Positions 2,343-46,534 are shown, counted from the first letter of the stretch. The stretch is DNA of 62,213 nucleotides from Gammaproteobacteria bacterium (GCA_041499655.1 JBGQKQ010000002.1:1-62213), one strand, 5' to 3'. Notes: a model not told the origin generated them from the sequence alone. Translations and numbers: made by a program.

Positions 2343-2352
2343 GAATTCCTTC

Positions 2353-2877
2353 TCACACCCAGCCCGTGAGACCGAGCAGCCCCCCGGCGGCGAGGAGCCA
2401 AAGGGGGTGGATTCTCGTGGACAGGACGATGGCCGCGGTCGCCGCGGTGATGACGAAAGCCAGCACCGAGTGGTCGGCCGCTAGGGTGATGAGATATCCG
2501 CCCGCGAGCATCAGGCCCACGGTCACGGGTACCAGGCCGTCCTCCACGACCTTGCGCCAGCGCGCGCCGCGAAAGCGCTGCCAGACCCGCGAGACCGCGT
2601 AGGTCAGAAGGCTCGAGGGCGCGCAAACCGCGCCGGTCGCCACCACGGCCCCGGCGAGACCCGCCACTTTCCAGCCGATCAGGCTGACGACGAGAATGTT
2701 CGGGCCCGGCGACGCCTGAGCGAGGGCGAACAGCTGCGCGAACTCCGCGCCGCTCATCCAGCCGTGGACCTCGACGACGTTGCGGTGCATTTCGGGGAGC
2801 ACGGTGATCACGCCGCCGAAGGCGAACAGCGACAGGAGCGAGAAATCGATCGCGAGCTGCGCCAGAGCCTCGCTCAT
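2353..2877 (-). CDS. chrA: Chromate transporter, short-chain CHR family (second half-size subunit)
   Basis: The track ORF 2353..3735 is over-extended. ATG 2877 (MSEALAQLAIDFSLLSLFAFGGVITVLPEM...ASPGPN) gives 174 aa, in frame. Its ATGA overlaps the stop of the upstream chrA half. Confidence 0.8.
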   Translation of the reverse strand: MSEALAQLAIDFSLLSLFAFGGVITVLPEMHRNVVEVHGWMSGAEFAQLFALAQASPGPNILVVSLIGWKVAGLAGAVVATGAVCAPSSLLTYAVSRVWQRFRGARWRKVVEDGLVPVTVGLMLAGGYLITLAADHSVLAFVITAATAAIVLSTRIHPLWLLAAGGLLGLTGWV

Positions 2878-3419
2878 CGCGCTCTCCACATCGCTGCAGC
2901 CACGCTCGCGGGCGCCGCGGCCAGCAAGAAGACGCCGAGCGGCAACCGTACCAGAGCGATACCCACGAACGCCGCGAGCGCGAACACCGCCATCGGCGAG
3001 CGCAGGCGCGGGCTCGCCGCCATCTTGAGCCCCATGGCCACGATCAGGCCCGCGGCGGCGGCGGAAATCCCGCGGAACGCCGCCGATATCGCCGGGAGCT
3101 CGCCGTACTGGGTGAACAACGCGCCCAGCGCGAGAATGATGGCGAAGGGCGCGCACAGCAGGCCCGAGAAGGCGGCTATCGCTCCACGGGCCCCGCGAAA
3201 GCGCGTCCCCACGCATACCGCCATGTTCACGATGTTCGGACCGGGGAGGACCTGGCACAGGCTCAGCGCCTCGCTGAATTCCTCGTCGCTCAGCCAGCGG
3301 CGCTCCTCGACGAGCATCCTGCGTGCCCAGGGCATCACGCCGCCGAAACCCGAAGCGCCGACCTGTGTGAAGCGCAGAAACAGCTCCGCCGCGCTCGGGG
3401 TGCCCGGCGCCTCGGTCAC
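2874..3419 (-). CDS. chrA: Chromate transporter, short-chain CHR family (first half-size subunit)
   Basis: CHR motif ELFLRFTQVGASGFGGVMPWARRMLVEERRWLSDEEF...LPGPN. The only in-frame start near the conserved N-terminus is GTG 3419, which overlaps the xerC stop as GTGA. Product is 181 aa. Confidence 0.75.
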   Translation of the reverse strand: MTEAPGTPSAAELFLRFTQVGASGFGGVMPWARRMLVEERRWLSDEEFSEALSLCQVLPGPNIVNMAVCVGTRFRGARGAIAAFSGLLCAPFAIILALGALFTQYGELPAISAAFRGISAAAAGLIVAMGLKMAASPRLRSPMAVFALAAFVGIALVRLPLGVFLLAAAPASVAAAMWRAR

Positions 3420-4339
3420 GGCTTCTTCTCCGTGACCGCCGCCTTCTTCTTCGCTCGCGGGTGAGCCGCGTCGTACGCCCTGGCGAGATGCTGAAAGTCC
3501 AGGTGCGTGTAGACCTGCGTCGTGGAAATGCTCGAGTGCCCGAGCATTTCCTGCACCGCGCGCAGGTCCCCGGAGGATTGCAGCACGTGTGTCGCGAAGG
3601 AATGCCGCAACATGTGCGGATGCACGTGCTGCGGGAGGCCCAGGCGCAGCGCCCATTGCGAGAGCGCGTAGCGTACCGAGCTCGCGCTGATGCGGCGGCC
3701 GCGCGCGCCCACGAAAAGAGCGGGTTCGCCGGCACCGGCGAGCGCAGCGCGCAACGCGAGCCAGGCTTCGACCGCCGCGCGCGCCTTGCTCCCGACCGGA
3801 ACGATGCGCGTCTTCGCCCCCTTGCCCGTGACGGTCACCTCGGCCTGGCGCAGGATGCCTTCGGCGTCCGCGACATCGAGACTGACGAGCTCGGCCAGCC
3901 GCAAACCCGACGAATAGAACACCTCGAGCATCGCCTTGTCGCGCGCTTCCGCGGGCGTGCGCGCCGGGCCCTCGAGAAGGCGGGCCATGAGGTCGGGCGA
4001 CAGCGCCTTGGGCAGGGCCTTCGGGCTCTTGGGCGCGCGCAAGCCGATGCAGGGATTACGCGAGAAGCCGCGGTGCTTGACGAGCCAGGCGAAGAAGCTG
4101 CGCCAGCCGGAGATCATGGTGGCGATGGTGCGTCCGGACATGCCGCGCGCATGCAGTTGCGACACGGTGCGCCGCAGGTGCTGGGCATCGAATTTGTCCA
4201 GGGCCAACCCGGGGTTGAGCGCGAAGAGCTCCTCGACGGCGCGCCGGTAGTTGCGCGCGGTTCCCGCGCTCAGCCGCCGCTGATGCGCGAGCTGGTCGAG
4301 AAACCCTTCGAGCAGACTCTGCCGGGCGTCGCGCGCCAT
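3416..4339 (-). CDS. xerC: Tyrosine recombinase XerC
   Basis: 307 aa. The catalytic region has HMLRHSFATHVL...GHSSISTTQVYTH. It sits in the classic dapF-DUF484-xerC arrangement. Confidence 0.9.
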   Translation of the reverse strand: MARDARQSLLEGFLDQLAHQRRLSAGTARNYRRAVEELFALNPGLALDKFDAQHLRRTVSQLHARGMSGRTIATMISGWRSFFAWLVKHRGFSRNPCIGLRAPKSPKALPKALSPDLMARLLEGPARTPAEARDKAMLEVFYSSGLRLAELVSLDVADAEGILRQAEVTVTGKGAKTRIVPVGSKARAAVEAWLALRAALAGAGEPALFVGARGRRISASSVRYALSQWALRLGLPQHVHPHMLRHSFATHVLQSSGDLRAVQEMLGHSSISTTQVYTHLDFQHLARAYDAAHPRAKKKAAVTEKKP

Positions 4340-4354
4340 TTCCGCCGGCTGCCG

Positions 4355-5014
4355 CTAGAGAAATCTCAGCAGTGCCGCGCTCGCGAGATCGCCCATGCGC
4401 TTCAGGTACAGCGTGCCCATCTCGGGGTAGAAGCGCAGCACGTCCTCGCTTCCCAGCGCGAGCATGCCGAAGCACTCTCTGTCGCGAAGCGCCATGTGCG
4501 CCACCGATCGCACATGCGATGCGCTCTCGCCGAACCAGGCCGCGGCCTCCGCGCTGCCGCTCGGACCGCAGAAGGGCTGCGACAGCGACGCGGCGTAGCG
4601 TTTCAGCTGATCGCCCACGCTGCGGAACTCCGGCGAATCGCCCGCTCCTTCCGGCGTACCGCGCGCCACGTCCCAGATCCGCAGCGCCGCATGGGGCACG
4701 GCGAAGTCCTCGCGCAAGTGCAGGTAGAGAACCGTCAGCAGGCTTTGCCAGTCGGGCGCAGCGAGGAGCGCGAGGGAAAGGCGATGCATCTTCTCGCCGA
4801 TCGCGTCGTTCTCCTCGCCGATCTGAAGGAGCTCCGAGAGGCGCGACTCGAGCGCCCTGCTCTTTTCCCGCAGCGTCAACAGCTGCCGGTCGGAAAGAGG
4901 GATCGCGCGGCCGCCGTGGGGATGGGGAATGCTGATCTCGGCGAGCATGTCGGCGTGGGTCTCGAAGAACGTCGGGTTCTCGCGCAGATAGCGCGCGACA
5001 TCGTCAGCTTTCAA
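4355..5014 (-). CDS. DUF484 family protein (YigA-like)
   Basis: 219 aa, [24 protein letters not shown]... Conserved position between dapF and xerC. The TTG start overlaps the dapF 3' end. Confidence 0.75.
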
Positions 5015-5873
5015 TCTCGATCTCCCCTTCGAATACGGTTACGGCGGGCCCCGTCATCCACACGGAGCGGCCGGGTTCATTGTCCCCGCCAGCCCAGCGT
5101 ATCGTCAATTGGCCGCCGCGGGTTGCAACGCGCACGGTGTGGTCGAGCAGCCCCTCCCTTATCCCCGTCACCACCGCCGCGCAGGCTCCCGTGCCGCAGG
5201 CGAGCGTCTCGCCGGCGCCGCGCTCCCACACGCGCAAGCGCACGCTCGAGCGATCCACGACCTGCATGTAGCCCGCGCTCGTCCGTTTCGGAAACCGGGG
5301 GTGCCACTCGATCAGCGGCCCTTCGGTCGTGACGGGCGCTGAATCCACGTCGGCAACGGTCTGCACCGCGTGCGGATTTCCCATGGAGAGCACCGCGACC
5401 GGCACCACGCGTCCGGCGACCTCGAGCGGCCAGCGCATTCCGGCCTGCACCGGCATGAGGCCGCTCGCGTCGAACGGCACGTGACGCGGGTCGAACCGCG
5501 GCGCGCCCATGTCGACGCTCACCAGGCCGTCGGCCTCGAGGCGCGGGGCGATCACCCCCGAGAGCGTCTCGACGCGGATCTCGGTCTTTTTCGTGAGCTC
5601 CTTGTCGTGCACGAACCGGACGAAGCAGCGTGCGCCGTTGCCGCACTGCTCGACCTCACCGCCGTCGGCGTTCCAGATGCGGTAGCGGAAATCCGCGTTC
5701 TTGCTCCGGGGTTTCTCAACCAGCAGCACCTGGTCGCAGCCGACACCGAAGTGGCGGTCGGCGATCTGCTTCGCGAACCGGGGCGACATTTCGATGGAAC
5801 GGCTCACCCCGTCCAGAACAACGAAGTCATTGCCCGCGCCCTGCATCTTGCTGAACTTCAGCTTCAATACCAC
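5004..5873 (-). CDS. dapF: Diaminopimelate epimerase
   Basis: [18 protein letters not shown]...CGNGARCF...ACGTGACA (both catalytic Cys motifs). The track ORF (to 6026) is over-extended. Plausible starts are GTG 5873 or TTG 5867 (the latter gives [10 protein letters not shown]); ATG 5846 is less likely. Confidence 0.9.
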
Positions 5874-6733
5874 TTGCCTTCCCCGGGAGGCCGCGTCTTG
5901 AAGCGCTTGTGCGTCCAGAAATACTGCTCGGGCATTTCGCGCACCCGCTCCTCGATGAATTCGTTCATGCGGCGCGCGTCCGCGGCGTCGTCGCCGCTCG
6001 GAAAATTCTCCCACGCGGGATAGCACTGCACTTCGTATCCCGCGCCACCCGGAAGCATGCGCGTGACGCAGGGTAGCACGCGCGCTCCAGTGAGCCTGGT
6101 CATGCGGGAGAGCCCGGTAATGGTCGCGGCCGGCACGCCGAAGAAGGGCACGAAGATGGTGTCGCGGGCTCCGTAGTCCTGATCAGGCAGGTAGTAGAAG
6201 GGGATGCCCTCCTTCACCGCGGCGATCGCCGGCCGCACGCCTTCCTGGCGCGGAATGGCGCGCTGATGCCCGAAGCGCGTGCGTCCGGACAGAAGCAGGG
6301 CATCGATGAGGGGATGCTTCTGCCTGGAGTAGATGCCCGCCATATCGATCTCGCAGGTCAGACGCGTGCATCCTGCGTCGAGCCCTACGAAGTGCGGCAC
6401 CAGCAGGATGAGCGGCTGCCCCCTGAGCGCGAGAATCCGCTCCAGGCCGACCACGCGCACCAGCCGCAGCAACTGCTCGCGCGGCGCCCACCAGAGAATC
6501 GAACGCTCGAGGACGGCGCGCCCGAAAGCGCGGAAGTGCGCCCTGGCGATGGCGATTCGCTCGCGTTTTGGCATCTGCGGAAAACAGCGCGCGAGATTGG
6601 TGAGGCAGACATTGCGGCGCTCGCGCGCGACGAAATAGAGGAGTCCCCCCAGCCCCGATCCGATCCTGGCGAAGATCGGCAGCGGAAGGAAATGCAGCAG
6701 CCAGACGATGCCGACGGCGAGGCGTGTCAGCAC
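5864..6733 (-). CDS. Lipid A biosynthesis (Kdo2-lipid IVA) late acyltransferase, LpxL/LpxM family
   Basis: 289 aa. N-terminal TM segment, HFVGLD-type acyltransferase region, and a C-terminal [15 protein letters not shown] signature. Confidence 0.8.
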
Positions 6734-7689: not shown

Positions 7690-8874
<1,185 letters not shown>

Positions 8875-8886
8875 GCAGGCCACACT

Positions 8887-8917
8887 AAAAAAAGCCGGCT
8901 TTGCGCCGGCTTTTTTT
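8887..8917. terminator. Bidirectional rho-independent terminator between metK and the MmeI-like gene
   Basis: AAAAAAA-GCCGGC-tttgc-GCCGGC-TTTTTTT: a GC stem flanked by an A7 tract and a T7 tract. It lies 13 nt after the metK stop and 17 nt after the stop of the convergent 8934..12410 gene. Confidence 0.8.
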
Positions 8918-8933
8918 GCTTCTTCGAGCACCC

Positions 8934-11900
8934 TCAATCCACTCCCAGCACGCCGCCTTTCACGCGGCGCGCACGACCAAGGGCCACCAAGGTTTCGATC
9001 AGCGGGGCGAGACCCTTCTTCCATGGCCCCTTGCCACTGAAGCGTTCAGCGATTTGCTCTTCCGATAGCGGCACATTCGCATCGGTAAGCACCTGCGCAA
9101 CGAGGCGGATGCGCTCGGGCAGCTCCTTCGGCCAAGGCAGGCGCGATACCGTGCCCGTCGCCGCCGACGTGTCCCCTCCCTCCACAACGTCGAGTGTTCC
9201 CTGAATCGATGCTGGACGGGTCGTCCCTTGGATCTGGAACTCCGGCCGCAACCAGCGCACTTGGCCTTTGGCTTCTTCGGCGGCGCGCTCGGCGTTGAGC
9301 GCCACGAGCCGCTCCAACAACGCGTCGTCCAGCACGCGCTTCGCCTCATCGCGCGACGCGGGCACTACCCCGCCTCCAGGCGCAATGCCGTTCACAGCGT
9401 TCATCAACGACGCAAGATCATTCCAGCCATAGGCATCGAGCACTGCGAGGTCCAGTTCATCGTGGTACTGCTTCAACACCGCCACCAAGCCCTGTTCGTG
9501 GATCACTTTGTCCTTGGCGTTCAAGGCTGCGCCGTCCTTGAGTTTCTCCAACACGTTGTACATGCCAGTCAGCGTGAGCGCCGGGTGCTGCGCCTGCTGG
9601 CGCTTGCGATGGGCATCGAGCTGTGCAGCAAGGTTACGGATGCGGGTTTGCTGCACTGCATTTGCGGGCGGGAATGGGAAAGTCTCAAAGCACCGGCCTT
9701 TGTTGTAAACAGGTCGATCTTCTAGGGTACCGCCAGCTGCAAGCGACCATTGCACGTGAACACAGCTTGATAACACGCCAAGACACCAAGCATCTTCAAA
9801 ACCAAATACAACCAATCTGTGCTCTGGGCGACTGCCGCCCTCAAGAAATGTGAATACACGATGTTTCGCTGTCTCTGCGGTGACCACGAATCTACTCAAC
9901 CCAGAAACAGACGCTCGCACCTGTTCATTACTACGGCGGAACAACCACCAGTTACTGCGAACTCGTGGATCTCGGTTCTCTTGCCTTTCTGGGTAAACTC
10001 GCTCATGAAGTTGTTGCCATAGCTCGGGCGCTTCACTTCTAAGTTGGCTTTCGCTTAATCCAAAAGCATCAATTACCCATACGTTCCGACACTGGTTCAG
10101 TATGTCCTCGCCATTGCGCAAAGGGAAAACTAGTTTCGCAGCAGTAGGGCTGCGCAACGAAAGCGATTTGACATCCTCGGCGCTTACCAAGAATCCACGT
10201 CCGCCAAGAATAAATCCGGTGTTCGCAATTCTCGAATTTGAATCAAGAATTGCTGCGCCGGCGACGTTGACGCCAACTGAGAGATCGGCGTGAATCTGCC
10301 CCACCTTGGTCGAGAAGGTCACAGACAGTGCGTCGTCCGTGGTCTCTTGTTCGTCTGCAACAGTGAGTAATTGACCCTCACCTTCGCCGGCCCTCCCTAC
10401 GCTCATGGCAATCCGCACCGCCGCGCCGTCGGTGCTGTCCACCCAGGGATGATCCGGAATGACGAACGCCAGCGACAGCGGCGACTTGGCAGCCATGTGC
10501 TTCTCGATCACGCGACGATTGAAAGTCTGGCGCAGACTGTTGGTAGTGATAAAGCCAAAGCGCCTCAACTTCGCCGTGCGCGCAAGTTCAGCTGCTTTGT
10601 TCCACCAATACATTACGAAATCCGCAGAATCCGGCACCTCTCGCCATGCTTCACGTAAAGCCTCGACATAGCCGTCGCCGAGCGAATCTCGGATTTTCCC
10701 CTTGCCCAAGAACGGTGGGTTGCCCACCACATAATCCGCCTCCGGCCACTTAGCATTGCGCGGATTGACATAGCGCTCCAGCGCGACACGTGCCGATTCG
10801 TCCGGCACGTCTTCACCGGTGGCCGGATGCTTTTTCATGGTCTTGCCGTCCCAGCGCGTCACCGGCCGGCCGTCGTCACCAAGTACGTACTCCACGCGGT
10901 CGTAGGCCAAGACCGCGTCGCGATGCTCGATGTTTCCGAAATCGCGCAGGATCGGTGGCGGCGGCGGCACTTTACCGCGGGTGCGAAAATGCCATTGCAG
11001 ATAGCCGATCCACAACACCAGTTCCGCGATAGCGGCGGCGCGCGGATTGATCTCGATGCCAAGCAGTTGATGCGGATCGACAGTGACGCCCGCGGTTTCG
11101 AGGCGCGCCTGGGGTTCGCCGAGAACTTCGAGCTGATTCAGCACTTCGCCTTCGAGGCGTTTCAGGTGTTCCAGCGTAACGTATAGAAAGTTGCCTGAGC
11201 CGCAGGCCGGGTCGAGGACACGCACGGCGCAAAGTTTGTGATGGAATGCGTGCACGGCTTTGCGTGCATCGTCGAGTTTGCCTTCACCGGCAAGGAGTAG
11301 CGCCGCGCCCTGTGCGTTCTTCCAATCCTCGCGCAAGGGCTCGATCACTGTCGGCAACACCAGCCGTTCCACGTAGGCGCGTGGTGTGTAATGCGCGCCG
11401 AGTGCGTGGCGCTCCTCGGGCATCAGCGCACGTTCGAGCAGCGTACCGAAAATCGCCGGCTCCACTTCGCGCCAATTGAACTTCGCCGCTTCCAGCAGTA
11501 GAGCGATCTGGTCCCGGTCGAGCGGCAGCACCTGCGGGTCCTTGAACAACTTGCCGTTGAACCGCAGCAAGTCCGCGCGTACCGAGACCGAAAAGCTTCC
11601 GATGTCCATCGCGCGCCATAGTTCGCCCACCAAAGGAACGAACTGGGCCGGATTGCCCTTGAGGCTTTCGAGCAGATCGACAAAGGCGCGCTTGGGCAGC
11701 AGGCCCACGTCCTCGGCGAACATGGAGAACAGGCCGCGTGTCAAAAAACCGGCAACCAGCTCGGGCGCGTGGCCCGCACCCTCTAGCGTCTGGGCGATCT
11801 TTGCGAGCTGCACGGCGATCTCGCGCGTTACCTTGGCCGAGCGGCGTGAGGGATCGAGCGATACCGGGTCGGTCCACACCGCGCGCAGCGTGTTGCGCAC

Positions 11901-12410
11901 GCCCTCGTCGCGAAGGTCGGTCATCCGAATGCGATGCGAGCGCGGATCGGGGAAAGGCGTGTAGGTGGCCCCCGAGCGCGAGAATTCTGCGTAGAGCTCG
12001 ATCACCTGCCCTACATCTACCACCACCACGAACGGCGGGCGGCTTTCGCCGGCGGGCAGTGCACGGGCGTACTGCTCGGCCTGGCCACGAGCGCGCAACA
12101 GCGCGTCATCGAAGCCCTGACCCAGGCTCTTTTTGATCTTCTTTGCTTCGAGCACGAAGGCACCGCGGCGATAGAGGTCGATGAAACCGGGTGACTCAGT
12201 ACCGTCACCGTGGCGAAAGGTAATGCGCCGCTCGAACACGTAGGCATTGTCGCGCGTGTCTTCGCGAGCGGGATCTGGCTGAGGCAATTCGAGCAGCGCG
12301 CACAGCTCGGTAAGAAAAAGCTGGTAGTTGGCCCGCTCCGAGCCGCTGGCTTCTTCCCAGCGGGTAATAAAGGCGTCGATGGGCGATTCAGCCGGTTTAG
12401 CCTTGGGCAT
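8934..12410 (-). CDS. MmeI-like type IIL/IIG restriction-modification enzyme (fused PD-(D/E)xK nuclease + N6-adenine DNA methyltransferase + TRD)
   Basis: 1158 aa. N-terminal FIDLYRRGAFVLEAKK (D-x9-E-x-K, the same spacing as the MmeI nuclease motif). SAM motif I VLDPACGSGNFL. Catalytic motif IV GNPPFLG. These are followed by a low-GC variable segment and a helical C-terminal tail. Confidence 0.8.
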   Translation of the reverse strand: MPKAKPAESPIDAFITRWEEASGSERANYQLFLTELCALLELPQPDPAREDTRDNAYVFERRITFRHGDGTESPGFIDLYRRGAFVLEAKKIKKSLGQGFDDALLRARGQAEQYARALPAGESRPPFVVVVDVGQVIELYAEFSRSGATYTPFPDPRSHRIRMTDLRDEGVRNTLRAVWTDPVSLDPSRRSAKVTREIAVQLAKIAQTLEGAGHAPELVAGFLTRGLFSMFAEDVGLLPKRAFVDLLESLKGNPAQFVPLVGELWRAMDIGSFSVSVRADLLRFNGKLFKDPQVLPLDRDQIALLLEAAKFNWREVEPAIFGTLLERALMPEERHALGAHYTPRAYVERLVLPTVIEPLREDWKNAQGAALLLAGEGKLDDARKAVHAFHHKLCAVRVLDPACGSGNFLYVTLEHLKRLEGEVLNQLEVLGEPQARLETAGVTVDPHQLLGIEINPRAAAIAELVLWIGYLQWHFRTRGKVPPPPPILRDFGNIEHRDAVLAYDRVEYVLGDDGRPVTRWDGKTMKKHPATGEDVPDESARVALERYVNPRNAKWPEADYVVGNPPFLGKGKIRDSLGDGYVEALREAWREVPDSADFVMYWWNKAAELARTAKLRRFGFITTNSLRQTFNRRVIEKHMAAKSPLSLAFVIPDHPWVDSTDGAAVRIAMSVGRAGEGEGQLLTVADEQETTDDALSVTFSTKVGQIHADLSVGVNVAGAAILDSNSRIANTGFILGGRGFLVSAEDVKSLSLRSPTAAKLVFPLRNGEDILNQCRNVWVIDAFGLSESQLRSEAPELWQQLHERVYPERQENRDPRVRSNWWLFRRSNEQVRASVSGLSRFVVTAETAKHRVFTFLEGGSRPEHRLVVFGFEDAWCLGVLSSCVHVQWSLAAGGTLEDRPVYNKGRCFETFPFPPANAVQQTRIRNLAAQLDAHRKRQQAQHPALTLTGMYNVLEKLKDGAALNAKDKVIHEQGLVAVLKQYHDELDLAVLDAYGWNDLASLMNAVNGIAPGGGVVPASRDEAKRVLDDALLERLVALNAERAAEEAKGQVRWLRPEFQIQGTTRPASIQGTLDVVEGGDTSAATGTVSRLPWPKELPERIRLVAQVLTDANVPLSEEQIAERFSGKGPWKKGLAPLIETLVALGRARRVKGGVLGVD

Positions 12411-12486
12411 GTGGCAACCTTAGCCGAGGGCTCGCGTTGGTGCAAATCACCCGGAAGCGATGACTGGCGCGGGTGTCCAGCCTATT

Positions 12487-13023
12487 TCATGCCGTGAACA
12501 GCTTGCCCAAAAGCTCGGCCGCACGAGCGAGAGCAGAATGAGCGTATGGAGGTGTGAGGATCGTCTGCGCTTCAGGATGTGAGGCCCAGTTGCGCAAGTC
12601 CTTGGCGATATCCCATAGGGCCTTGTCATCGTCCCTAATCAGGCCGCGCTCGGTCAGCGTCTGCATCAGCCGACCGAAGGAGACAGGGCGACCGGTGCCG
12701 TCCTTTTGCGCCACGACAACCGGGATACCCAGTTGTGCGCAGCGGGCGCGAATGCCGGCTTCCATGACCCGGTAGCACTGTTCCGCACCCAGCGTCATCA
12801 GCGGATAGAAAAACCAGCCGTAGATCATCGCCCCGCGCGCCACCTCGAATAGCGCGGCGATTTCCTGCGGTACGCGGGCGTCGAGTTGCACGCGTGAGAA
12901 GCCTCCTACCCAAGCCTCCGGCGTGCCACGCCCAAAGGCACGCGAAATATCGGACTGTTGCAAATTGGCAGCGTTAATACGTTTAAAGCCGTGATGTAAG
13001 TCCGCGTTGTCTTCGTCGGTCAT
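12487..13023 (-). CDS. Hypothetical 178-aa helical protein, possibly DUF4145-like (RM/abortive-infection associated)
   Basis: ATG 13023 is preceded by GGAGAA; the track's longer start at 13113 has no RBS. The C-terminal pattern LWDIAKDLRNWASHPE...ARAAELLGKLF resembles the DUF4145 LR..GN.aaH signature. I could not verify this. Confidence 0.5.
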   Translation of the reverse strand: MTDEDNADLHHGFKRINAANLQQSDISRAFGRGTPEAWVGGFSRVQLDARVPQEIAALFEVARGAMIYGWFFYPLMTLGAEQCYRVMEAGIRARCAQLGIPVVVAQKDGTGRPVSFGRLMQTLTERGLIRDDDKALWDIAKDLRNWASHPEAQTILTPPYAHSALARAAELLGKLFTA

Positions 13024-13226
13024 ACTAAGATTTCTCCGCGAAAAGCATGATCTAGGATGGCTTAGACCAGGGGCATCAAGGTCCGCACTGATTTCGACCT
13101 TTAGACGCTTCAATGCGTTTATCCGTAGCTAGCGATGTGCGCGAGGCGCAGCAGCCTCATTGACTCATTTCACGCCAAATCCCTTTAACGTCTTAGCGCA
13201 CCGCACAGTAGACAGAGAGGGCAAAC

Positions 13227-16200
13227 CTACACCAGCGAACGTCGGCTGATCGCAAATCGTGCATCCGTAATGATTGCCTCAGCCTTGTCGATCGGCTCAA
13301 TACCGCCAACGTGAAGAATATCGAGGTCACAGCGTCTGCCGGCGTGCACGATGGCGGCGGCGGCGAGCTCAAGTGCAGCTATTGTCCGGTGCTCACGCAG
13401 CCACGAGCCAAACAACTGGAAAATCCGTCCAACTTGCCCGCCCTGATTGAAGTAACGGTCGATCCAATGACCAATCCAGTAAATATCGTCCTTGGTGAGC
13501 AACGTATCCCAGTGCGAAACGATTCCGGAATCGTCGAGATATTCGACTTCGCGCCACTGCCCTGTCAGGCGCCCATCAAGATGAGTCTGACGGAATTCAA
13601 GCCAGCCTCGATCATTGCAGAGTTCCCAGAAGGCGTGGATTGCTGAATCGTCAAGGTAGTCGAGGTAAGGCACAAGTGCCTCGACCTGTTCAATACGGCT
13701 AACCCCTGGATGGCCGGACATCTTTATCCCAAAGTGCATATCGCAGTATTTCAACATTTCCTTCGCGTCGGGGCATTTCGACATAGCCTCTTGAGCTAAG
13801 GCACACGAAATCGGCGTGGCAAGATAAAGAGCAGCTTGAACAAAATATGACGAATATCGGAGGTGCTGCCAATGCTTTACTAACAACTTTTCACCGGTCG
13901 CAGGTTTTAGGCGCATTACGAATTCGGATGTAGACGGGTCGGTTTCGTATTGAATCCCCCATGCAGTATCCACTTTGGTACTTCTACGTTGAAATGCCTC
14001 ATCGAGTGCATTGGTCAGATCATCGGACCAGATGTATCGACCAAGTTGCCACCAGAAACCACGCTTATCAGTTTTGAGTTTTTCGAGCATTGCTGGAATT
14101 GCTGCCCTATCGCCACGTTTCAGTCTTGCAAACAGAATGTCATCCGCGAGAGATGCCGGAACCTCTACAGTACGCAAGAGCGAAATATCGTCTGGCGCTG
14201 ACGTAGTCGCCCAGAGAAGGAAGGCCTGTCGGCGAAGATATTTGTCATGATCAATATCTTCCCAGAGTTCCTTTAACCGCCGCCGTGAATCCAACGACAT
14301 TCGTGCACCTTCTTCACGCTGCCGGCGTTCCCAATCGCTTCTCACGCTAATCGGAAAAAACCAGTAATCCTCTTTCCCTTCAAATTCTCGGCTGCGGGCC
14401 GCGAATTCGCGCGCGATGAACTCGACTGCATCTGGATGATCGATGCCTCGAAGCATGCAAGTGATCGGCCAATGTAACTCCTTTTGTTTTGCACGCTCAA
14501 TAAAATAATGCAGAGATGATTCGGGTAATGATTTCTTAAACGCCCAGGAAATATGATCGGCCGCAAGTGCGTTTCGAGGGGAGGACGAGCCCTCTTTGAC
14601 ACCCTTGTCAGGTAATGCCGCCCAGGCATCGCAGACCGGTCCGAGCAGCCGGTCCGATTTGTTGCCACAGCACTCCGCGGCAGCCCACAGATAGCCAGCA
14701 AGACGTTCCGTTCTATCTGGATCGGACGCCCAACACGCAGCAATGGCATCTGCGAGAGAAGGCTCGGCGAAATGACCGGCCAAGCGGAGCGCTCCGGTTC
14801 GCGCGCGACCCGATAAATCAGATTGATTCAGCAGATCGTCGAGCATGCGTATGAGTGTCTTTCCGAAACGAACCTTCGCATGTGCGATTTGATGATCGTG
14901 CCAAGGTGCGGTGACACCGGGTTCAAGTCGAGAACACAGTCGAATACCGGCTTTCAAATCACCATTTCGAAAGCGAGCTTGCAGGGTGGCCCATGTCTCG
15001 TCGCTAAATCGATCTGTTATGGCAAGAACGTGCGACGACTCTGTCTCAGACAATGCATGAAGGGCGGCCCACCTCAGCGCGCGGTTCGCACGATCATGCG
15101 TACCCGCGGTGTCAAGCCAAGTCTCAATAGCACGTAACACTGCGTGATGGATGTCTGCGCTAGGCTCACGAAATGCCTTAAGGGCATGGAAAAGTGCGAG
15201 GGGATTGGATTCCATCACCCGCTTGGCCATGTCTGCCGAAATGTCGGGGGCAGCTAGAGCGGCACCGATCACATCGGCAAAGAAAGGCTCCGTTAGGATG
15301 ACATCTTCAAGCTCACCAGATTGCATCGAAGCGGCAAGTACGTCAGACAAAAGCCACGCACGGACACGGTCGTGACGAAACGCGAGTCGCTCCACGTTAC
15401 CTGTTTCTATGAGACGCACCACTTCGCCACGTTTAACAATCTGGCGCAATGCTGCGAGACGATCAGGCTGATTGCTAAACCATCCTCGGATTTCCACCCA
15501 ATTTGGATCGACTCGACGATAAGTCAGAATTCCTCTGGCAAGCGCCTTTAGCGTAGTTCGATATTCAGTCAACGTGAAATCGCTCGCACTACTTGCGAGG
15601 CTGCGGAGCCTGGCGTTAATGAAATTGCCAATGACCTGCGGTGGTTCCGGCTTCTTAACGAAATCGTATAACGCTACGAGGAGCGGATCGTTCCCCAACG
15701 CTTCTGCCAGATTGTCAGCCTCAAGTGAGGACACGGGAACATTGACGAGCGCGGCATTGCACTCGATCGCCGTGCGGGCCTCATTAGCCGTGAATGGCGC
15801 CGCTGATATAGAGAGGGATTCAATGCGTTTCCTCGCCTCATCCGAGATTGTCACAAGAGTTTTAGGCCAAACGGGACAAAACAATCCCCAGTTCAAACGT
15901 TCTGTAGAGACACTTTCTGGCCGTACTCCAGCCCATCCAACTAAACGTTCAAGCAAGAGTGCGGGGTTTTCAGACCAGTTCACATCCTCGACAACAACAA
16001 GAAAAGGGTCTTCGGGTGAGCAAATTGCACGTACCCTTGCACCAGCGTCCGCTTCTAGCTTTGGATGAATCTTTCTGAGTTCAGCATCAACGGCTTGGTC
16101 AAAAGTCCTGTGCGCGGCCAGGGTTTCGTTCATTAGAACGAGACCGCATCCACCCGCATCAATGTGGGCTTTTAAATGCTTATAACAAGCGATGGTTTTT

Positions 16201-16922
16201 CCAGAACCAGATTCCCCAACGAGAAACGCGACGGGACGTGGTGATCGTTCCGCCACTACACGATCAAGCTCTCGGCTGACTAAGCTTTCTAATTGTGCCG
16301 CTGGACGATTGGCTTCGATGCTTGAACGAGAAAGATCACGCAGCAATTGCTTAGACAAACGCTGCTGAACGAGTCCAAGAAAATTATTTCTGAGCCACTC
16401 TCCGTCCGGGTCATTGTCGAGAAAATCAGCAATGCGTGAGCATGACCAGATGTCGATGCTGACTCCATAGCCCTTCGCTGCTGCCTCGATATCTCGCGTC
16501 AGTTCTTCTGGGGGCTCTCTGTTGGTGGTTAAGGCCAATGTCACGAGAAGCCCTGGAGTGCGTTTTCGCTCCTCTTCGACTATACCCATTGTTTTGAGTA
16601 CATCGCCGGGCGGGGCAGTGGGTTTTCGCCCTTTCGAAGGCCTGACTGTCGACGGGTCGTGCAACCATTTCTTTCTTAAATCATCGCTAGCGCCACTGGC
16701 ATGATGAGCAATGACCATATGAGGCGGAACCGCTCGCGCCACGAATGCAATCCCGTCGACGGGTGATTTGACGGTCTTGCCGTCAGCGTTCATGCCGGGA
16801 TGAGTAAGATTGCTGTAAAGCGCAGGGGCACCTGTACGTAAAACCGCCGTCGCTAGCCTCTCGAACAAGCCGGCATCAGTAATTTTCGAGAGCGCACGGA
16901 TTGTTTCACCGTGATCTGTCAT
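13227..16922 (-). CDS. Large tripartite P-loop NTPase (STAND-like): unknown N-terminal domain + NTPase + HEAT-like repeat C-terminus; candidate defence protein
   Basis: 1231-aa ORF in ~47% GC DNA. Walker A FLVGESGSGKT (aa ~233-243, nt ~16194-16217). Walker B FLVVVEDVN (aa ~307-315). Winged-helix-like LAFRHDRVRAWLLSDVL (aa ~513-529). About 700 aa of helical repeats follow, including RGDRAAIPAMLEKLKTD. ATG 16922 is preceded by AAGGTGG. Confidence 0.75.
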   Translation of the reverse strand: MTDHGETIRALSKITDAGLFERLATAVLRTGAPALYSNLTHPGMNADGKTVKSPVDGIAFVARAVPPHMVIAHHASGASDDLRKKWLHDPSTVRPSKGRKPTAPPGDVLKTMGIVEEERKRTPGLLVTLALTTNREPPEELTRDIEAAAKGYGVSIDIWSCSRIADFLDNDPDGEWLRNNFLGLVQQRLSKQLLRDLSRSSIEANRPAAQLESLVSRELDRVVAERSPRPVAFLVGESGSGKTIACYKHLKAHIDAGGCGLVLMNETLAAHRTFDQAVDAELRKIHPKLEADAGARVRAICSPEDPFLVVVEDVNWSENPALLLERLVGWAGVRPESVSTERLNWGLFCPVWPKTLVTISDEARKRIESLSISAAPFTANEARTAIECNAALVNVPVSSLEADNLAEALGNDPLLVALYDFVKKPEPPQVIGNFINARLRSLASSASDFTLTEYRTTLKALARGILTYRRVDPNWVEIRGWFSNQPDRLAALRQIVKRGEVVRLIETGNVERLAFRHDRVRAWLLSDVLAASMQSGELEDVILTEPFFADVIGAALAAPDISADMAKRVMESNPLALFHALKAFREPSADIHHAVLRAIETWLDTAGTHDRANRALRWAALHALSETESSHVLAITDRFSDETWATLQARFRNGDLKAGIRLCSRLEPGVTAPWHDHQIAHAKVRFGKTLIRMLDDLLNQSDLSGRARTGALRLAGHFAEPSLADAIAACWASDPDRTERLAGYLWAAAECCGNKSDRLLGPVCDAWAALPDKGVKEGSSSPRNALAADHISWAFKKSLPESSLHYFIERAKQKELHWPITCMLRGIDHPDAVEFIAREFAARSREFEGKEDYWFFPISVRSDWERRQREEGARMSLDSRRRLKELWEDIDHDKYLRRQAFLLWATTSAPDDISLLRTVEVPASLADDILFARLKRGDRAAIPAMLEKLKTDKRGFWWQLGRYIWSDDLTNALDEAFQRRSTKVDTAWGIQYETDPSTSEFVMRLKPATGEKLLVKHWQHLRYSSYFVQAALYLATPISCALAQEAMSKCPDAKEMLKYCDMHFGIKMSGHPGVSRIEQVEALVPYLDYLDDSAIHAFWELCNDRGWLEFRQTHLDGRLTGQWREVEYLDDSGIVSHWDTLLTKDDIYWIGHWIDRYFNQGGQVGRIFQLFGSWLREHRTIAALELAAAAIVHAGRRCDLDILHVGGIEPIDKAEAIITDARFAISRRSLV

Positions 16923-16961
16923 GCCGCCACCTTAGCGGATGCAGTTTCAGGGTGCAATTGG

Positions 16962-16998
16962 CCGGAACGGCAAGCTGGACGTAGCGTTCCGGTTTTTT
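16962..16998 (+). terminator. Orphan rho-independent terminator-like hairpin at the ahcY-proximal edge of the insertion
   Basis: CCGGAACG-(15 nt)-CGTTCCGG followed by TTTTTT on the + strand. No + strand gene lies upstream of it. Confidence 0.5.
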
Positions 16999-17057
16999 CC
17001 TTTCACAAACCGGCCCTGCGAATGGCATCGAGCTCTGCGTCTGAGGTATAATTCGCC

Positions 17058-17138
17058 CTCCTCGAGGAGCGTTGCAACGGGCAGCCGGTTCCGGCACCCG
17101 CCAGGCTCGGGGGATACACCAGTGCAACCGCGCTCGCA
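17058..17138 (+). promoter_or_regulatory. SAH (S-adenosylhomocysteine) riboswitch in the ahcY leader
   Basis: Contains the conserved SAH-element blocks GAGGAGCGUUGCAAC ... CCAGGCUCGGGGG ... GCAACCGCGCUCGC, immediately upstream of ahcY. A TATAAT at 17047-17052 sits just 5' of it. The AGGAGG SD is at 17156-17161. Confidence 0.8.
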
Positions 17139-17168
17139 AACTTTTTTCGAAAGAAAGGAGGGCGCGAG

Positions 17169-18599
<1,431 letters not shown>

Positions 18600-18682: not shown

Positions 18683-19396
18683 GTGGCGACTATGAACTCG
18701 ATCTGGCACGACAACTACGCCGCAATCGCGCTGCACTTGGTGATCGCCCTCGCCGCGGGGGCGATCATCGGTCTGGAGCGCAGCTATCACGGCCGCCCTG
18801 CCGGCTTTCGCACCCATGCCCTCGTGTGTTTGTCTTCCTGCATGCTGATGGTGATGACCGTGTACCAGGACACCTGGTTCGAAGCTTTCTCCCTGGAGCG
18901 GGCCAACATCGACCCCACCCGCATGGCGCAAGGGATCATGACCGGCATCGGTTTCCTCGGGGCAGGGGTGATCATGCGGGACGGCCTGACCGTCCGCGGC
19001 CTGACCACTGCCGCGTCGATCTGGATCACGGCCGGCATCGGCGTGATGATCGGCGTGGGATTCTATTTTCCGGCGGGAATAGCGACGGCGATGACTCTTA
19101 TCGTCCTCTCCGTCTTTCGCTGGATTGAGCGCAGGATGCCGATCGAGTTCTACGCGAATCTCACGGTGGCTTTCACGCGCGGCGCCACCTTGCCCGAAGC
19201 GGACTTGCGCTCGATCGTAGAACGGCAGGGGTTCGTCGTCGCCAACATGAACTACAGTGTCACGGGAGAGGGACAGATCTTCGAGTACCAGATGGTGATC
19301 CACTCGCCCGAGCGGGAAAAGACCCGCGAGCTTGCCGCGGCCCTCAACGCTCTTTCCACGGTCACAGGCTTCCGCATATCACCGACCGGCGACTAG
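18683..19396 (+). CDS. MgtC/SapB family membrane protein
   Basis: GLERSYHGRPAGFRTHALVCL...RGLTTAASIWITAGIGVMIG, plus a C-terminal ACT-like domain. The start is GTG 18683 or, more likely, ATG 18692 with GGGAG 11 nt upstream. Confidence 0.8.
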   Translation: MATMNSIWHDNYAAIALHLVIALAAGAIIGLERSYHGRPAGFRTHALVCLSSCMLMVMTVYQDTWFEAFSLERANIDPTRMAQGIMTGIGFLGAGVIMRDGLTVRGLTTAASIWITAGIGVMIGVGFYFPAGIATAMTLIVLSVFRWIERRMPIEFYANLTVAFTRGATLPEADLRSIVERQGFVVANMNYSVTGEGQIFEYQMVIHSPEREKTRELAAALNALSTVTGFRISPTGD

Positions 19397-20334
19397 AGCT
19401 CGTACGCCTCCGCCTTGCCTGCGAGCGCGGTCTCGATGAGAGTTCGGGTCAGGCGCGGCGAGAACAGCTCGATGAACGTGTAGGCGAACCCGCGCAAGGC
19501 GGCGCCGCGCCGCACTGCGACGCGCGTCGTCATGGTACCGAACAGGTGCCCGGCCTCGAGCGAGCGCAGGGTACGGTCACGCTTTTCGTCGAAGGCCATC
19601 GCCGCGATGATGCCGATGCCCAGGCCCAGTTCGACGTAGGTCTTGATCACGTCGGAGTCAACCGCCGAGAGCACGATGTCCGGCGCAAGCCCCTGCGCCC
19701 GGAACGCCTCGTCAATGTGGCTCCTCCCGGCGAACGCGGGGTCGTAGGTGATGATCGGCTGGCGCGCGAGCTCGTCGAGTGCCAGCCGATCACGCTTCGC
19801 GAGCGGATGTTTCGCCGGCACGACGACGCAATGGCTCCATTCGTAGCCGGGCAGCGCCAGCAACTTCGGATAGCTGTCCAGCGCCTCGGTAGCGATCGCG
19901 ATATCGGCCTCGCGCGCGATCACCATCTCGGCGAGCTGCGGCGGACTGCCCTGCTTGATCGTGAGGTGTACCTTGGGATAGCGCCGTTTGAACGCGCCCA
20001 CCACTTTGGGCAATGAGTAGCGCGCCTGGGTATGCGTGGCGGCAATCGTCAGAGTGCCCGAGGCCTGGTCCTTGAACTCACGGCCGACCTGCCTCAGGTT
20101 TTCCGCCTCCTGCAGCAGGTGATCGATGACCTCGACCACGGCCTTGCCGGGCTCGGTGACGGCGACGATGCGCTTGCCGTGCCGCACGAAGATCTCCACG
20201 CCGAGCTCGGTTTCGAGCTCGCGGATCTGCTTCGATACCCCGGGCTGGGACGTGTGCAGTGTTCTCGCCGCCTCCGTGAGATTCAGTCCCTGCCTGACTG
20301 TCTCCCTGACGTAACGTAATTGCTGGAAATTCAT
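19393..20334 (-). CDS. cysB: LysR-family transcriptional regulator, CysB-like
   Basis: 313 aa. MNFQQLRYVRETVRQGLNLTEAARTLHTSQPGVSKQIRELE matches the CysB/Cbl N-terminal HTH. It is divergent from the sulfate-assimilation cluster. Confidence 0.8.
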   Translation of the reverse strand: MNFQQLRYVRETVRQGLNLTEAARTLHTSQPGVSKQIRELETELGVEIFVRHGKRIVAVTEPGKAVVEVIDHLLQEAENLRQVGREFKDQASGTLTIAATHTQARYSLPKVVGAFKRRYPKVHLTIKQGSPPQLAEMVIAREADIAIATEALDSYPKLLALPGYEWSHCVVVPAKHPLAKRDRLALDELARQPIITYDPAFAGRSHIDEAFRAQGLAPDIVLSAVDSDVIKTYVELGLGIGIIAAMAFDEKRDRTLRSLEAGHLFGTMTTRVAVRRGAALRGFAYTFIELFSPRLTRTLIETALAGKAEAYEL

Positions 20335-20356
20335 AGACTTAGTATATATGTTCGAT

Positions 20357-20374
20357 TGTTATTAAATTCTAACA
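20357..20374. promoter_or_regulatory. LTTR-box-like dyad in the AT-rich cysB/tauE divergent promoter region
   Basis: TGTTA-N8-TAACA inverted repeat inside the only strongly AT-rich intergenic tract here (20335-20435). Confidence 0.35.
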
Positions 20375-20435
20375 TGAAAGTCTTTTGAGGTATAAGCGCA
20401 GAAAGCTAGGATGCGTTTCCCCTGTGAAAGTTTCA

Positions 20436-21209
20436 ATGGACTGGCTCACCACATTGTCAGGATTCTGCGTCGGCTTGATCGTCGGCATCACCGGCGTGGG
20501 CGGCGGCTCACTGATGACACCGCTACTCGTACTGGTGTTTGGCGTCGCCCCGGTCACGGCGGTCGGCACGGACCTGGTGTTTGCATCGCTGACCAAGGCG
20601 GGCGGCGCGTGGGCCCACGCACGGCGCGGTAACGTCGACTGGAACGTCGTCGGTTGGCTCGCAGCGGGAAGCGTCCCGGCCTCGGCCATTACGCTGATGG
20701 CACTGCACCTGTTCGTTCCCCACCCCGACGAGCTCTCGGCGCTCGTGAGCGTTGCGCTCGGCATTGCGCTGATCCTTACCGCCGGCGCCCTCGTCTTCAG
20801 GGAAAGGCTCCATGCATGGGCGGCGCGGCGCGTTCCGGCGAGGGTCGATCGACGCCTCACTTCGCGGCGCACCTTGATCGTTGGTGCGATCCTCGGTGTG
20901 CTGGTCACCCTGTCCTCGGTCGGAGCGGGAGCACTCGGCGTGACGGCGCTCTTCTTCCTCTATCCGGGGCTCGCTGTCGCGCGCATCGTCGGCACCGACA
21001 TCGCGCACGCGGTGCCGCTCACGCTGGTTGCAGGCCTCGGCCACGCTGTCGCGGGAGCCGTCGACTGGAAGCTGCTCGTTGCGCTCCTCATCGGGTCGCT
21101 ACCCGGCATCTGGCTCGGCAGCTCGCTCGGCCAGAAAATCCCCGAACGCGTGCTGCGCACTGCTCTCGCCGTGATGCTCGCGCTGATCGGCGGCAAGCTC
21201 GCCCTGTAG
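20436..21209 (+). CDS. TauE/SafE family sulfite/anion exporter (DUF81)
   Basis: MDWLTTLSGFCVGLIVGITGVGGGSLMTPLL... Polytopic, with an internally repeated GxGGG motif. ATG 20436 chosen; in-frame GTG 20424 and the track start 20385 are alternatives. Confidence 0.75.
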   Translation: MDWLTTLSGFCVGLIVGITGVGGGSLMTPLLVLVFGVAPVTAVGTDLVFASLTKAGGAWAHARRGNVDWNVVGWLAAGSVPASAITLMALHLFVPHPDELSALVSVALGIALILTAGALVFRERLHAWAARRVPARVDRRLTSRRTLIVGAILGVLVTLSSVGAGALGVTALFFLYPGLAVARIVGTDIAHAVPLTLVAGLGHAVAGAVDWKLLVALLIGSLPGIWLGSSLGQKIPERVLRTALAVMLALIGGKLAL

Positions 21210-44486: not shown

Positions 44487-45241
44487 AGAAACGCACCATG
44501 GAGACGAGCCTCGCGGCGCAGCCGCCCCGGCTCATCCGCTCGGTCGAGCGGCGCCTCTTCCTCAGGCAGGGACTGTCGCTCGGCGCCCTGGCCATGCTCT
44601 CGGGCTGCAACCTGACCGACGACGAAAGCGTGCAGCGGGTGCTCGAGGGCATGTCGCGCTGGAACGACCGCGCCCAGGGCTGGATCTTCAGCCCGACCAA
44701 GCTCGCTCCGGAATTCCCGGAGAGCGCGATCACCAAGCCCTTCCCCTTCAACGCGTTCTACACCGAGGACGAGATCACCGCCGTCGACGGCAAGAGCTAC
44801 CAGCTCGAACTCGCCGGCATGATCCGCGACAAGAAACCCTGGACCCTGCCCGAGCTCTACGCGCTGCCGCAGACTTCGCAAATCACCCGCCACATCTGCA
44901 TCGAGGGCTGGAGCGCGATCGGCAAGTGGAGCGGCGTACGCTTCTCGGATTTCCTCTCGCGCATCGGCGCCGACACCACCGCGAAATACATCGCCTTCGA
45001 CTGCGCCGACGACTACTCGACCAGCATCGACATGGCTACGGCGCTGCACCCGCAGACGCTGCTTACCTTCCGCTTCGCCGACGAGATCCTGCCGCCGAAG
45101 TACGGCTTCCCCATGAAGCTGCGCATCCCCACCAAGCTCGGCTTCAAGAACCCCAAGCACATCGTGGCCATGGAGGTCACGAACGATTATCCGGGCGGCT
45201 ACTGGGAAGACCAGGGCTACAACTGGTTCAGCGGGTCCTGA
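44483..45241 (+). CDS. Molybdopterin-dependent oxidoreductase (sulfite-oxidase fold, YedY/MsrP-like catalytic subunit)
   Basis: ATG 44483 is preceded by AAGGAGGG and forms ATGA with the cytochrome b stop. RRLFLRQGLSLGALAML is a Tat-like signal. ITRHICIEGWSAIGKWSGVRF is the Mo-cofactor cysteine region. The track start 43886 is over-extended. Confidence 0.8.
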   Translation: MKKRTMETSLAAQPPRLIRSVERRLFLRQGLSLGALAMLSGCNLTDDESVQRVLEGMSRWNDRAQGWIFSPTKLAPEFPESAITKPFPFNAFYTEDEITAVDGKSYQLELAGMIRDKKPWTLPELYALPQTSQITRHICIEGWSAIGKWSGVRFSDFLSRIGADTTAKYIAFDCADDYSTSIDMATALHPQTLLTFRFADEILPPKYGFPMKLRIPTKLGFKNPKHIVAMEVTNDYPGGYWEDQGYNWFSGS

Positions 45242-45268
45242 GGTCGCGGCGTCACATTTGAGGTGGCA

Positions 45269-45785: not shown

Positions 45786-45876
45786 CTACGTCTGAGTGAA
45801 GAGCCTTGCGCGGTCTAACGTCCCGGTTCGGGTGCGCCGGCAGGCGTCGCCCGCAACCGGCGATTAGCACCCAGTT

Positions 45877-46530: not shown

Positions 46531-46534
46531 TCAG

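Follow-up and report, generated by a model that had tools for sequence, protein, structure and literature searches.

EcAvs4, an Avs4-type pattern-recognition receptor whose structure is available with a bound phage portal (PDB 8DGF), combines in a single chain an N-terminal domain of restriction-endonuclease fold, an NTPase module of the STAND (signal transduction ATPases with numerous domains) class and a large helical C-terminal sensor. A catalogue of prokaryotic defence STANDs names Avs7-21 and recognises 589 clades, 198 of them defence-associated (PMC13581612), and the embedding of defence genes in other defence systems has been described as a general pattern (bioRxiv 10.1101/2024.01.29.577857). 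The anticodon nucleases PrrC and RloC, which pair a P-loop NTPase with a nuclease and are viewed as a suicidal back-up, reside in type I restriction-modification (RM) loci. The DUF4145 family, described as occurring ‘in operon with R-M’, has been placed in the HEPN superfamily (PMC3710099), and the DUF4145 domain of RAZR/PD-T7-4 was shown experimentally to be a phage-triggered RNase (PMC13017515). Here we analyse a stretch of 62,213 nucleotides from a Gammaproteobacteria bacterium (GCA_041499655.1 JBGQKQ010000002.1:1-62213, hereafter the window), in which three minus-strand genes lie between metK and the S-adenosylhomocysteine (SAH) riboswitch/ahcY unit. A preliminary description, made from the sequence alone, had reported genes for a protein of 1231 aa, one of 178 aa and one of 1158 aa at this position, and open reading frame (ORF) calls, Pfam and Rfam agree. 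As detailed below, the largest is a predicted STAND-like NTPase, the smallest a predicted HEPN RNase and the third an MmeI-like RM enzyme, in keeping with the earlier suspicion that all three genes are of defence type.

We consider it likely that the island is a horizontally acquired mosaic defence islet, made of three self-sufficient immune modules stacked at one site, and not a dedicated system. In the uncultured Burkholderiales bacterium that carries it, it would occupy a recurrently used spot immediately beyond the stop codon of metK. By analogy with MmeI, the RM enzyme would methylate an asymmetric site and cut unmodified incoming DNA at a fixed distance from it. The solo HEPN protein, which carries the motif of a predicted RNase, would act as an abortive effector by stopping translation in infected cells. 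If EcAvs4 is a guide to the NTPase, its C-terminal alpha-solenoid would bind a conserved phage protein, its NTPase module would then drive oligomerisation, and its N-terminal restriction-endonuclease-fold domain would then destroy nucleic acid and so abort the infection. The outcome would be layered immunity of the kind in which defence genes are embedded in or beside RM systems.

An insertion between metK and ahcY

The preliminary description had proposed that the metK-ahcY interval be compared among related genomes, and this comparison revealed empty sites in related Burkholderiales contigs. The MetK sequences closest to that of the window (91-95% identical) belong to uncultured Burkholderiales and Betaproteobacteria, and in contigs L149 and L150-L153 ahcY comes 120-145 nt after metK. 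The neighbours of these empty sites are those of the window, with two lipid-A acyltransferase genes upstream and the MgtC, LysR, TauE and sulfite reductase genes downstream. In blastn comparisons with L148-L150, homology to the window ends at 8857-8875 and resumes at 17037-17046, where a GGTATAAT box stands ahead of the SAH riboswitch. Since homology with the empty-site relatives stops and resumes at these points, the segment from 8876 to about 17036 is an insertion of foreign DNA between the two genes. At 0.565, its GC content is below that of the remainder of the window (0.653), and no other 8.2-kb stretch of the window has a lower value. The empty sites and the low GC bear out the earlier suggestion that the block is foreign to its host, and the hand counts of GC given with that suggestion (0.692, 0.467 and 0.483) were reproduced to the third decimal.

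One relative, L148, whose MetK is 95% identical to that of the window, carries a different insert of ∼1 kb in the same spacer (5603-6619), which encodes a 171-aa ORF (5663-6178) without a Pfam match. Because a different insert is held at the same spot, insertion into the metK-ahcY spacer appears to have recurred in this Burkholderiales lineage, which points to a hotspot. The preliminary description had seen no integrase, transposase, tRNA or flanking direct repeats. In agreement, there is no tRNA gene in the window, and no flanking direct or inverted repeats around the island and no integrase or transposase ORF within it were found. A phage origin is not indicated, as scans of viral contigs gave a single relative for the NTPase and a single one for the HEPN protein.

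The block had also been described as bracketed by two terminators. The left one, a bidirectional intrinsic terminator, proved strong on both strands and now terminates metK as well as the RM gene. The right one possesses a run of T6 but is the weaker hairpin (-15.5 kcal/mol, with a z of only -1.2). Neither hairpin is present in the empty sites of the relatives, and since the limits of the insert enclose both, both belong to it. Between the genes, a terminator scan and shuffled-fold controls agree with the earlier report of gaps of 203 nt and 76 nt free of terminator hairpins; no structure beyond that of shuffled controls was seen in either gap, and the promoter scan was uninformative, with 1 site found where 3.5 are expected by chance. 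The three genes may well be co-transcribed, as stacked defence genes often seem to be.

This arrangement, with one strand, short gaps lacking terminators, terminators on the outside and insertion as a single block relative to the empty sites, is what speaks for the model of the preliminary description, in which the RM enzyme, an adaptor and a giant NTPase make up one dedicated and undescribed three-component defence system. We regard this model as very improbable. Co-occurrence of the three genes elsewhere had been proposed as its test, and the genes were never together in any independent context that we examined. We assembled 68 loci for the NTPase family, including 56 from a one-genome-per-species scan and 7 metagenome loci, 80 metagenome loci with relatives of the HEPN protein, and 4 plasmid loci for the RM enzyme. 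No MmeI-like gene was found in the 68 NTPase loci, neither an NTPase nor an MmeI-like gene was found nearby in the 80 HEPN loci, and tblastn detected no relative of the NTPase or HEPN protein beside the RM homologues of the 4 plasmid loci. The sole DUF4145-like neighbour in the 68 NTPase loci is a 250-aa ORF of L004 (9219-9971), a weak relative of the window HEPN protein (phmmer E 1.6e-6) that has a bacterial NACHT gene on one side and is followed after 21 nt by the NTPase gene; the sister locus L005 is without one. The trio recurs only in metagenome contig L147, in which all three proteins are 100% identical to those of the window; this contig represents the same population and so is not independent evidence. 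Each family is otherwise found alone or with unrelated partners.

Base composition also speaks against a common history. GC at third codon positions (GC3) reaches 0.68 in the RM and HEPN genes alike but 0.50 in the NTPase gene, with host genes at 0.81-0.92. Because GC3 sharply separates the NTPase gene from the other two, the island is best read as a mosaic from different sources. No new defence class is implied, since the three-gene system is not upheld. Taken singly, the RM enzyme falls in a family already known, the HEPN protein counts as a diverged representative of DUF4145, and the NTPase is new and unannotated but of a known kind, the bacterial NLR-like/Avs receptors.

The three proteins and their nearest relatives

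When the sequence of the NTPase was compared with Pfam, NCBIfam, PHROGs, PADLOC and PDB, nothing emerged beyond a sub-threshold match to AAA_16 and a chance-level NCBIfam match. No PADLOC family, the AVAST models included, was hit at E <= 0.01, and no paper on the family was found by accession in the literature. At E <= 1e-3 the family comprises 791 clusters at 50% identity, and at least 306 clusters at 90% identity are all annotated ‘hypothetical’. The best 150 of the 791 clusters are mostly of ∼1200-1250 aa, the others being shorter fragments, and nearly all of them align from about residue 5 to about residue 620. The family is well delimited, with ∼800 clusters at 50% identity and a fixed architecture of ∼1230 aa, and extends over bacteria and haloarchaeal plasmids.

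For structural comparison we used models of a 1200-aa homologue, P0016, which is 64% identical to the window NTPase, and of the first 200 residues of the window protein itself. The AlphaFold2 model of P0016 (pLDDT 87.7, pTM 0.70) retrieved EcAvs4 with its phage portal (8DGF) as the top Foldseek match in PDB, over the whole length and with an E-value of 1.3e-8. The next matches were the archaeal ATPase paby2304, NLRP9, NLRC4, NLRP3, NLRP14 and Cdc6/Orc1 (prob 1.00, as for EcAvs4), and the C-terminal half of the model matched the HEAT solenoids of CAND1, karyopherins and importins. Because a profile of the family finds no match in PDB sequences, the likeness to Avs4 is purely structural.

The model of the first 200 residues (pLDDT 87.5) again retrieved EcAvs4 chains first, followed by BstEII, MspJI, EcoT38I, Avs3, Can2 and Card1. 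The E-values of these matches are weak (1.7e-3 to 0.4), and the order of secondary structure elements fits the alpha-beta-beta-beta-alpha-beta core of restriction endonucleases. Polar residues E21, D56, H74, K85, D107, K110, T132, N134 and E136 are invariant in the family and H73 is nearly so. In the predicted domain, P54-x-D56 starts strand 2, E21 lies in helix 1 and K85 in the helix after strand 3, and the domain may hold a variant active site.

Beyond this domain, motifs conserved across the family are consistent with a STAND protein. The Walker A sequence GESGSGKT (236-243) has S238, G239, G241 and K242 invariant in 25 homologues, and the Walker B sequence LVVVEDVN (308-315) has invariant E312 and D313. 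A GxP-like motif, LGNDPLL (409-415), has D412, P413 and L414 invariant, and an invariant MHD-like FRHDR (515-519) falls in a predicted beta-hairpin past the helical domain; the two are candidates for the GxP motif of the helical domain and the conserved histidine of the winged helix in STAND proteins. On the basis of motifs and models, we predict that the large protein is STAND/NLR-like, an unannotated member of the bacterial NLR-like/Avs receptor kind. The preliminary description had called it STAND-like and had found no named multi-gene system to match the combination of the three proteins; the motifs and Foldseek results agree with the former, and the NTPase itself is covered neither by a named system nor by the hidden Markov models of PADLOC, Pfam and NCBIfam.

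The single-chain layout of EcAvs4 is matched in the modelled NTPase by a restriction-endonuclease-fold N-terminus, a STAND NTPase and a large helical C-terminal presumed sensor; EcAvs4 is the best Foldseek match for both models, and both proteins occur in a defence-island context. Unlike EcAvs4, to which it has no sequence-level similarity, the NTPase is ∼300 aa shorter, has H73-H74 in strand 3 in place of (D/E/Q)xK, ends in a HEAT/ARM solenoid-like region and belongs to a family whose architecture is invariant over ∼800 clusters. With the catalogued STANDs it shares the kind of protein and the route of inference, which combines STAND, effector and defence neighbourhood, whereas it lies outside the named families recognised by PADLOC v2. 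The family may already be among the 589 catalogued clades.

Judged by its domains and motifs, the RM gene encodes an intact MmeI-family type IIG/IIL enzyme, as the preliminary description had proposed. MmeI_N, MmeI_hel, MmeI_Mtase and MmeI_TRD all score above the Pfam gathering thresholds in one chain, and the PADLOC REase_MTase_IIG model PDLC03627 matches from end to end with 1486 bits. The predicted nuclease motif D78-x9-E88-x-K90, the S-adenosylmethionine (SAM)-binding motif VLDPACGSGNFL (398-409) and NPPF (564-567) are all present. The four Pfam domains, the D-x9-ExK arrangement, the SAM motif and NPPF are shared with MmeI itself, from which the enzyme differs in being ∼240 aa longer at its C-terminus, as in the PADLOC subfamily PDLC03627. 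The part of the gene that encodes the target recognition domain (TRD) and C-terminus (8934-10400) has GC/GC3 of 0.57/0.61 and the nuclease-methylase part (10401-12410) 0.62/0.73, suggesting from composition that the specificity domain may have been exchanged. Homologues with 52-58% identity are solitary plasmid genes with unrelated neighbours in the 4 plasmid loci. Matches to PglX of BREX and DrmMI of DISARM cover only shared methyltransferase or C-terminal regions, far below the IIG score, and both assignments were rejected; none of the partners PglZ, BrxC, BrxL or DrmA/B/C is in the island, which contains only the three genes.

The small protein had been described as adaptor-like, a role that its motif and family do not favour. 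Its start at ATG 13023 was set by the aligned N-termini of 38 homologues, the mechanical ORF extending to TTG 13113. The window protein itself has no match in Pfam (E <= 0.01), PADLOC, NCBIfam, PHROG or PDB. Its 83 homologues reach at most 53% identity. Its Rx4H motif (RNxxSH) has an arginine, R144, that never varies in the family, and N145, S148 and H149 are close to invariant. Among the 38 aligned homologues, which are 35-53% identical to the window protein, 23 match PF13643 (best E 3.4e-7) and 4 match HepT-like, and the family profile aligns with the HEPN protein HI0074 precisely at the Rx4H motif. We therefore predict that the protein is a diverged HEPN RNase of the DUF4145 branch. Its R144 and H149 are placed as expected from RAZR/PD-T7-4 (PMC13017515) and the DUF4145 HEPNs (PMC3710099), it has PF13643-matching relatives, and the association of DUF4145 genes with RM operons recurs in the window. 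In contrast to these, it has no zinc-finger domain, no PADLOC PD-T7-4 match and no fused restriction endonuclease or helicase, and it is too diverged to match PF13643 at E <= 0.01.

Relatives of the HEPN gene lie directly after type I hsdS in several loci (L069, L072 and L091, also L071, L073, L100 and L067), and others adjoin integrases, metallo-beta-lactamase-fold genes or ABC-type ATPases. A 1048-aa neighbour of the HEPN gene in L137, considered as a IIG enzyme, was rejected because BLASTP finds no similarity to the window RM enzyme.

Neighbourhoods of the NTPase family

The NTPase family is sporadic over more than 10 phyla. The 56 genome loci come from Acidobacteriota, Pseudomonadota, Myxococcota, Bacteroidota, Cyanobacteria, Latescibacterota, Gemmatimonadota and others. 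Eight plasmids carry the gene, two of them haloarchaeal: L160, which is plasmid PL100 of Haloquadratum walsbyi C23 (12571-16245 of the record), and NZ_CP144464.1 (Halalkalicoccus). The haloarchaeal relatives are full-length, 25-26% identical to the window protein and annotated just as ‘ATP-binding protein’. Gene copies in L049 and L051-L056 are split into 2-4 ORFs or truncated and are probably pseudogenes.

Clustering of same-strand neighbours in the 56 genome and 7 metagenome loci revealed no conserved or universal partner gene. Known defence genes are nevertheless strongly enriched near the family: a methylase-based system lies within 5 kb in 18 of the 68 loci and within 10 kb in ∼21, where the chance level for any defence gene within 5 kb is 0.0153 (PMC13581612). 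Four loci (L004, L005, L043 and L061) have bacterial NACHT proteins nearby, Gabija-like genes occur near the NTPase of L066, Septu-like genes are near some others, and the plasmid neighbours include Shedu, Lit and AbiEii. This enrichment weighs against the proposal that the NTPase is a regulatory or housekeeping STAND, akin to the MalT/AfsR type, that came to lie in variable DNA by chance. Many STAND clades are indeed non-defence (PMC13581612) and the immune role of the NTPase is itself a prediction. A regulatory or housekeeping role nonetheless seems highly unlikely to us, given that the protein has no DNA-binding or regulator-type output domain, that its N-terminus has a predicted restriction-endonuclease fold with an invariant polar constellation, and that the family is distributed patchily, reaches onto plasmids and has copies that have decayed to pseudogenes.

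Two groups of loci are closely associated with methylase genes. The Hma clade consists of eight loci (L014, L019, L021, L023, L028, L029, L030 and L033, ∼5-22 kb of each) that belong to Latescibacterota, Vicinamibacteria and Rhodothermaceae. Their genes run hmaA, a 123-aa ORF (clustered in 3 loci), NTPase, often HEC-01 (an ATPase/DUF4276 pair), hmaB and hmaC; the NTPase holds a fixed position between hmaA and hmaB and its stop sometimes overlaps the hmaB start. The second group is that of the window protein itself. In a neighbour-joining tree of 51 full-length proteins it falls with those of L057, L058, L061, L063 and L064, and L163 (63% identical) was joined to this clade by identity and is not in the tree. 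L058 combines the NTPase with a single-chain ISP-like IIG enzyme and AbiE. Type I RM genes accompany the NTPase in L057, L063, L064, L006 and L163, with the order hsdM-hsdS-115aa-NTPase...hsdR in L057.

The family therefore conforms in part to the pattern of embedded defence genes: it lies between hmaA and hmaB in the Hma clade, at least 5 loci have it within or directly behind the genes of a type I RM system, and the HEPN family follows hsdS as noted above. It departs from that pattern in that neither the NTPase nor the HEPN protein matches any HEC or PDC model (PADLOC-DB 2.0.0), and in that the window RM enzyme is single-chain, so that its companions are adjacent to it and not embedded. The resemblance to PrrC and RloC is likewise partial. 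The niche in L057, the combination of a P-loop NTPase with a predicted nuclease and the idea of a suicidal back-up are alike, whereas the fold and size of the NTPase are unrelated to theirs. PrrC-like embedding is seen in the relatives L057, L063, L064, L006 and L163 but neither in the window nor in most of the family, and while PrrC is almost exclusively RM-embedded, ∼70% of the NTPase family is not near a methylase system.

Several observations weigh against our preferred reading of three self-sufficient modules. The three genes share a strand and have no terminators between them, and the anti-phage activity of all three is predicted only, from motifs, models and analogy. Strand 3 of the NTPase N-terminal domain, with its pair of histidines, is without the canonical (D/E)xK, and the best Foldseek E-value is only 1.7e-3; because of these two points its nuclease chemistry is uncertain. 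Finally, in 6 of the 7 independent contexts of the window clade, RM genes for N6-adenine methylases directly flank the NTPase gene and share its strand. They belong to type I systems (L057, L063, L064 and L163), an ISP-like IIG enzyme (L058) and the MmeI-like enzyme of the window, and in L063, L064 and L163 the RM and NTPase genes overlap or nearly abut. This is tighter than loose co-location in an island and could mean functional coupling.

The alternative that these last observations raise is a functional coupling of the STAND protein, possibly also of the HEPN protein, to whatever methyltransferase-based restriction system is adjacent. Following the logic of PrrC and EcoprrI, the protein would be encoded on one transcript with RM or Hma methylase genes, stay silent while the RM complex or its activity is intact, and fire when a phage anti-restriction function disables it. 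Besides the three RM classes that flank the window clade and the small gaps, the similarity of L057 to the prr locus, the fixed position of the whole clade of 8 just before or near a methylase gene of the Hma system, and the HEPN genes that directly follow hsdS are all in its favour. However, the ∼70% of NTPase loci without a methylase system within 10 kb fit it poorly, as does the fact that the partner RM classes have no subunit in common that could be guarded. In L163, a remnant of hsdM (1144-2055), which retains HsdM_N and just the first 66 of 311 N6_Mtase positions, overlaps the start of an intact NTPase gene (2039-5743), and there is no hsdS. To judge from these ORFs, L163 is a decayed type I RM locus in which the NTPase has been kept; because hsdM is truncated and hsdS absent, the NTPase persists there without a working RM system, which argues for autonomy. 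Embedding is likewise seen for independent systems that function alone, such as Septu and the HECs, and gene order in the window differs from that of the relatives, the NTPase gene being upstream of the RM gene and not downstream, with the HEPN gene between them. On balance we think coupling of this kind unlikely and continue to favour stacked, self-sufficient modules. Were coupling true, it would extend the ‘guard’ logic of PrrC to a bacterial NLR-like receptor.

The family resembles Avs4-type pattern-recognition receptors in its predicted fold, yet is invisible to Pfam, NCBIfam and PADLOC v2, and it recurs in four kinds of methylase-based defence loci. It offers a test case for distinguishing embedding in RM loci through mere co-mobilisation from functional coupling, and is a candidate for screens of phage-protein triggers.

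Small or mid-sized ORFs without a Pfam match were observed beside close relatives of the NTPase. They comprise the 115-aa ORF before the NTPase in L057 (9601-9948), an ORF of 316 aa (311 aa by another call) after the NTPase in L064 (5494-6444) and a 480-aa ORF before the NACHT gene in L061 (612-2054), and are mutually unrelated.

Coordinates and minor observations

Table 1. Features of the islet and its flanks, in coordinates of the window.
Feature	Position	Strand	Basis
metK, host left flank	7690..8874	+	three S-AdoMet synthetase Pfam domains; 86-90% nucleotide identity to relatives
Defence islet (predicted function), 8,161 bp	8876..17036	.	homology breaks against empty sites of relatives; low GC
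Bidirectional intrinsic terminator inside the insert	8887..8917	.	fold -20.2 and -20.7 kcal/mol; z -5.7, -4.4; A7/T7 flank
MmeI-family type IIG/IIL RM enzyme, 1158 aa, assigned by sequence	8934..12410	-	Pfam, PADLOC, motifs
76-nt gap, HEPN gene to RM gene	12411..12486	-	no terminator-like site; fold z 0.0
Stand-alone DUF4145-family HEPN protein, 178 aa, predicted RNase	12487..13023	-	homologue family; Rx4H
203-nt gap, NTPase gene to HEPN gene	13024..13226	-	no terminator-like and no promoter-like site; fold z ∼0
Predicted STAND/NLR-like (Avs4-like) NTPase, 1231 aa, unannotated family	13227..16922	-	AlphaFold2 model of homologue, Foldseek, motifs
C-terminal all-alpha solenoid, aa ∼541-1231, presumed sensor	13230..15302	-	DSSP of model (helices only); Foldseek
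P-loop NTPase, helical and winged-helix module, aa ∼200-540, predicted	15303..16325	-	family-conserved motifs
N-terminal putative effector domain, aa 1-190, predicted restriction-endonuclease (PD-(D/E)xK-like) fold	16353..16922	-	domain model; Foldseek
Hairpin with T6, right end of insert, upstream of ahcY promoter	16962..16998	+	terminator scan
SAH riboswitch, host right flank	17058..17142	+	Rfam RF01057, 58.2 bits
ahcY, host right flank	17169..18599	+	Pfam AdoHcyase, E 3e-145

Positions of the features discussed are collected in Table 1. Outside the island, a second GC dip (0.56-0.59 in 1-kb bins) was noted at 45000-47000 of the window and may be further foreign DNA. An ORF at 45877-46530 on the minus strand within this dip has no Pfam match, and another at 46763-47419 on the plus strand has weak cytochrome-c-type matches only. 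A short GC dip (0.545-0.57) occurs at 20000-20600, just past a LysR-type gene at 19393-20334.

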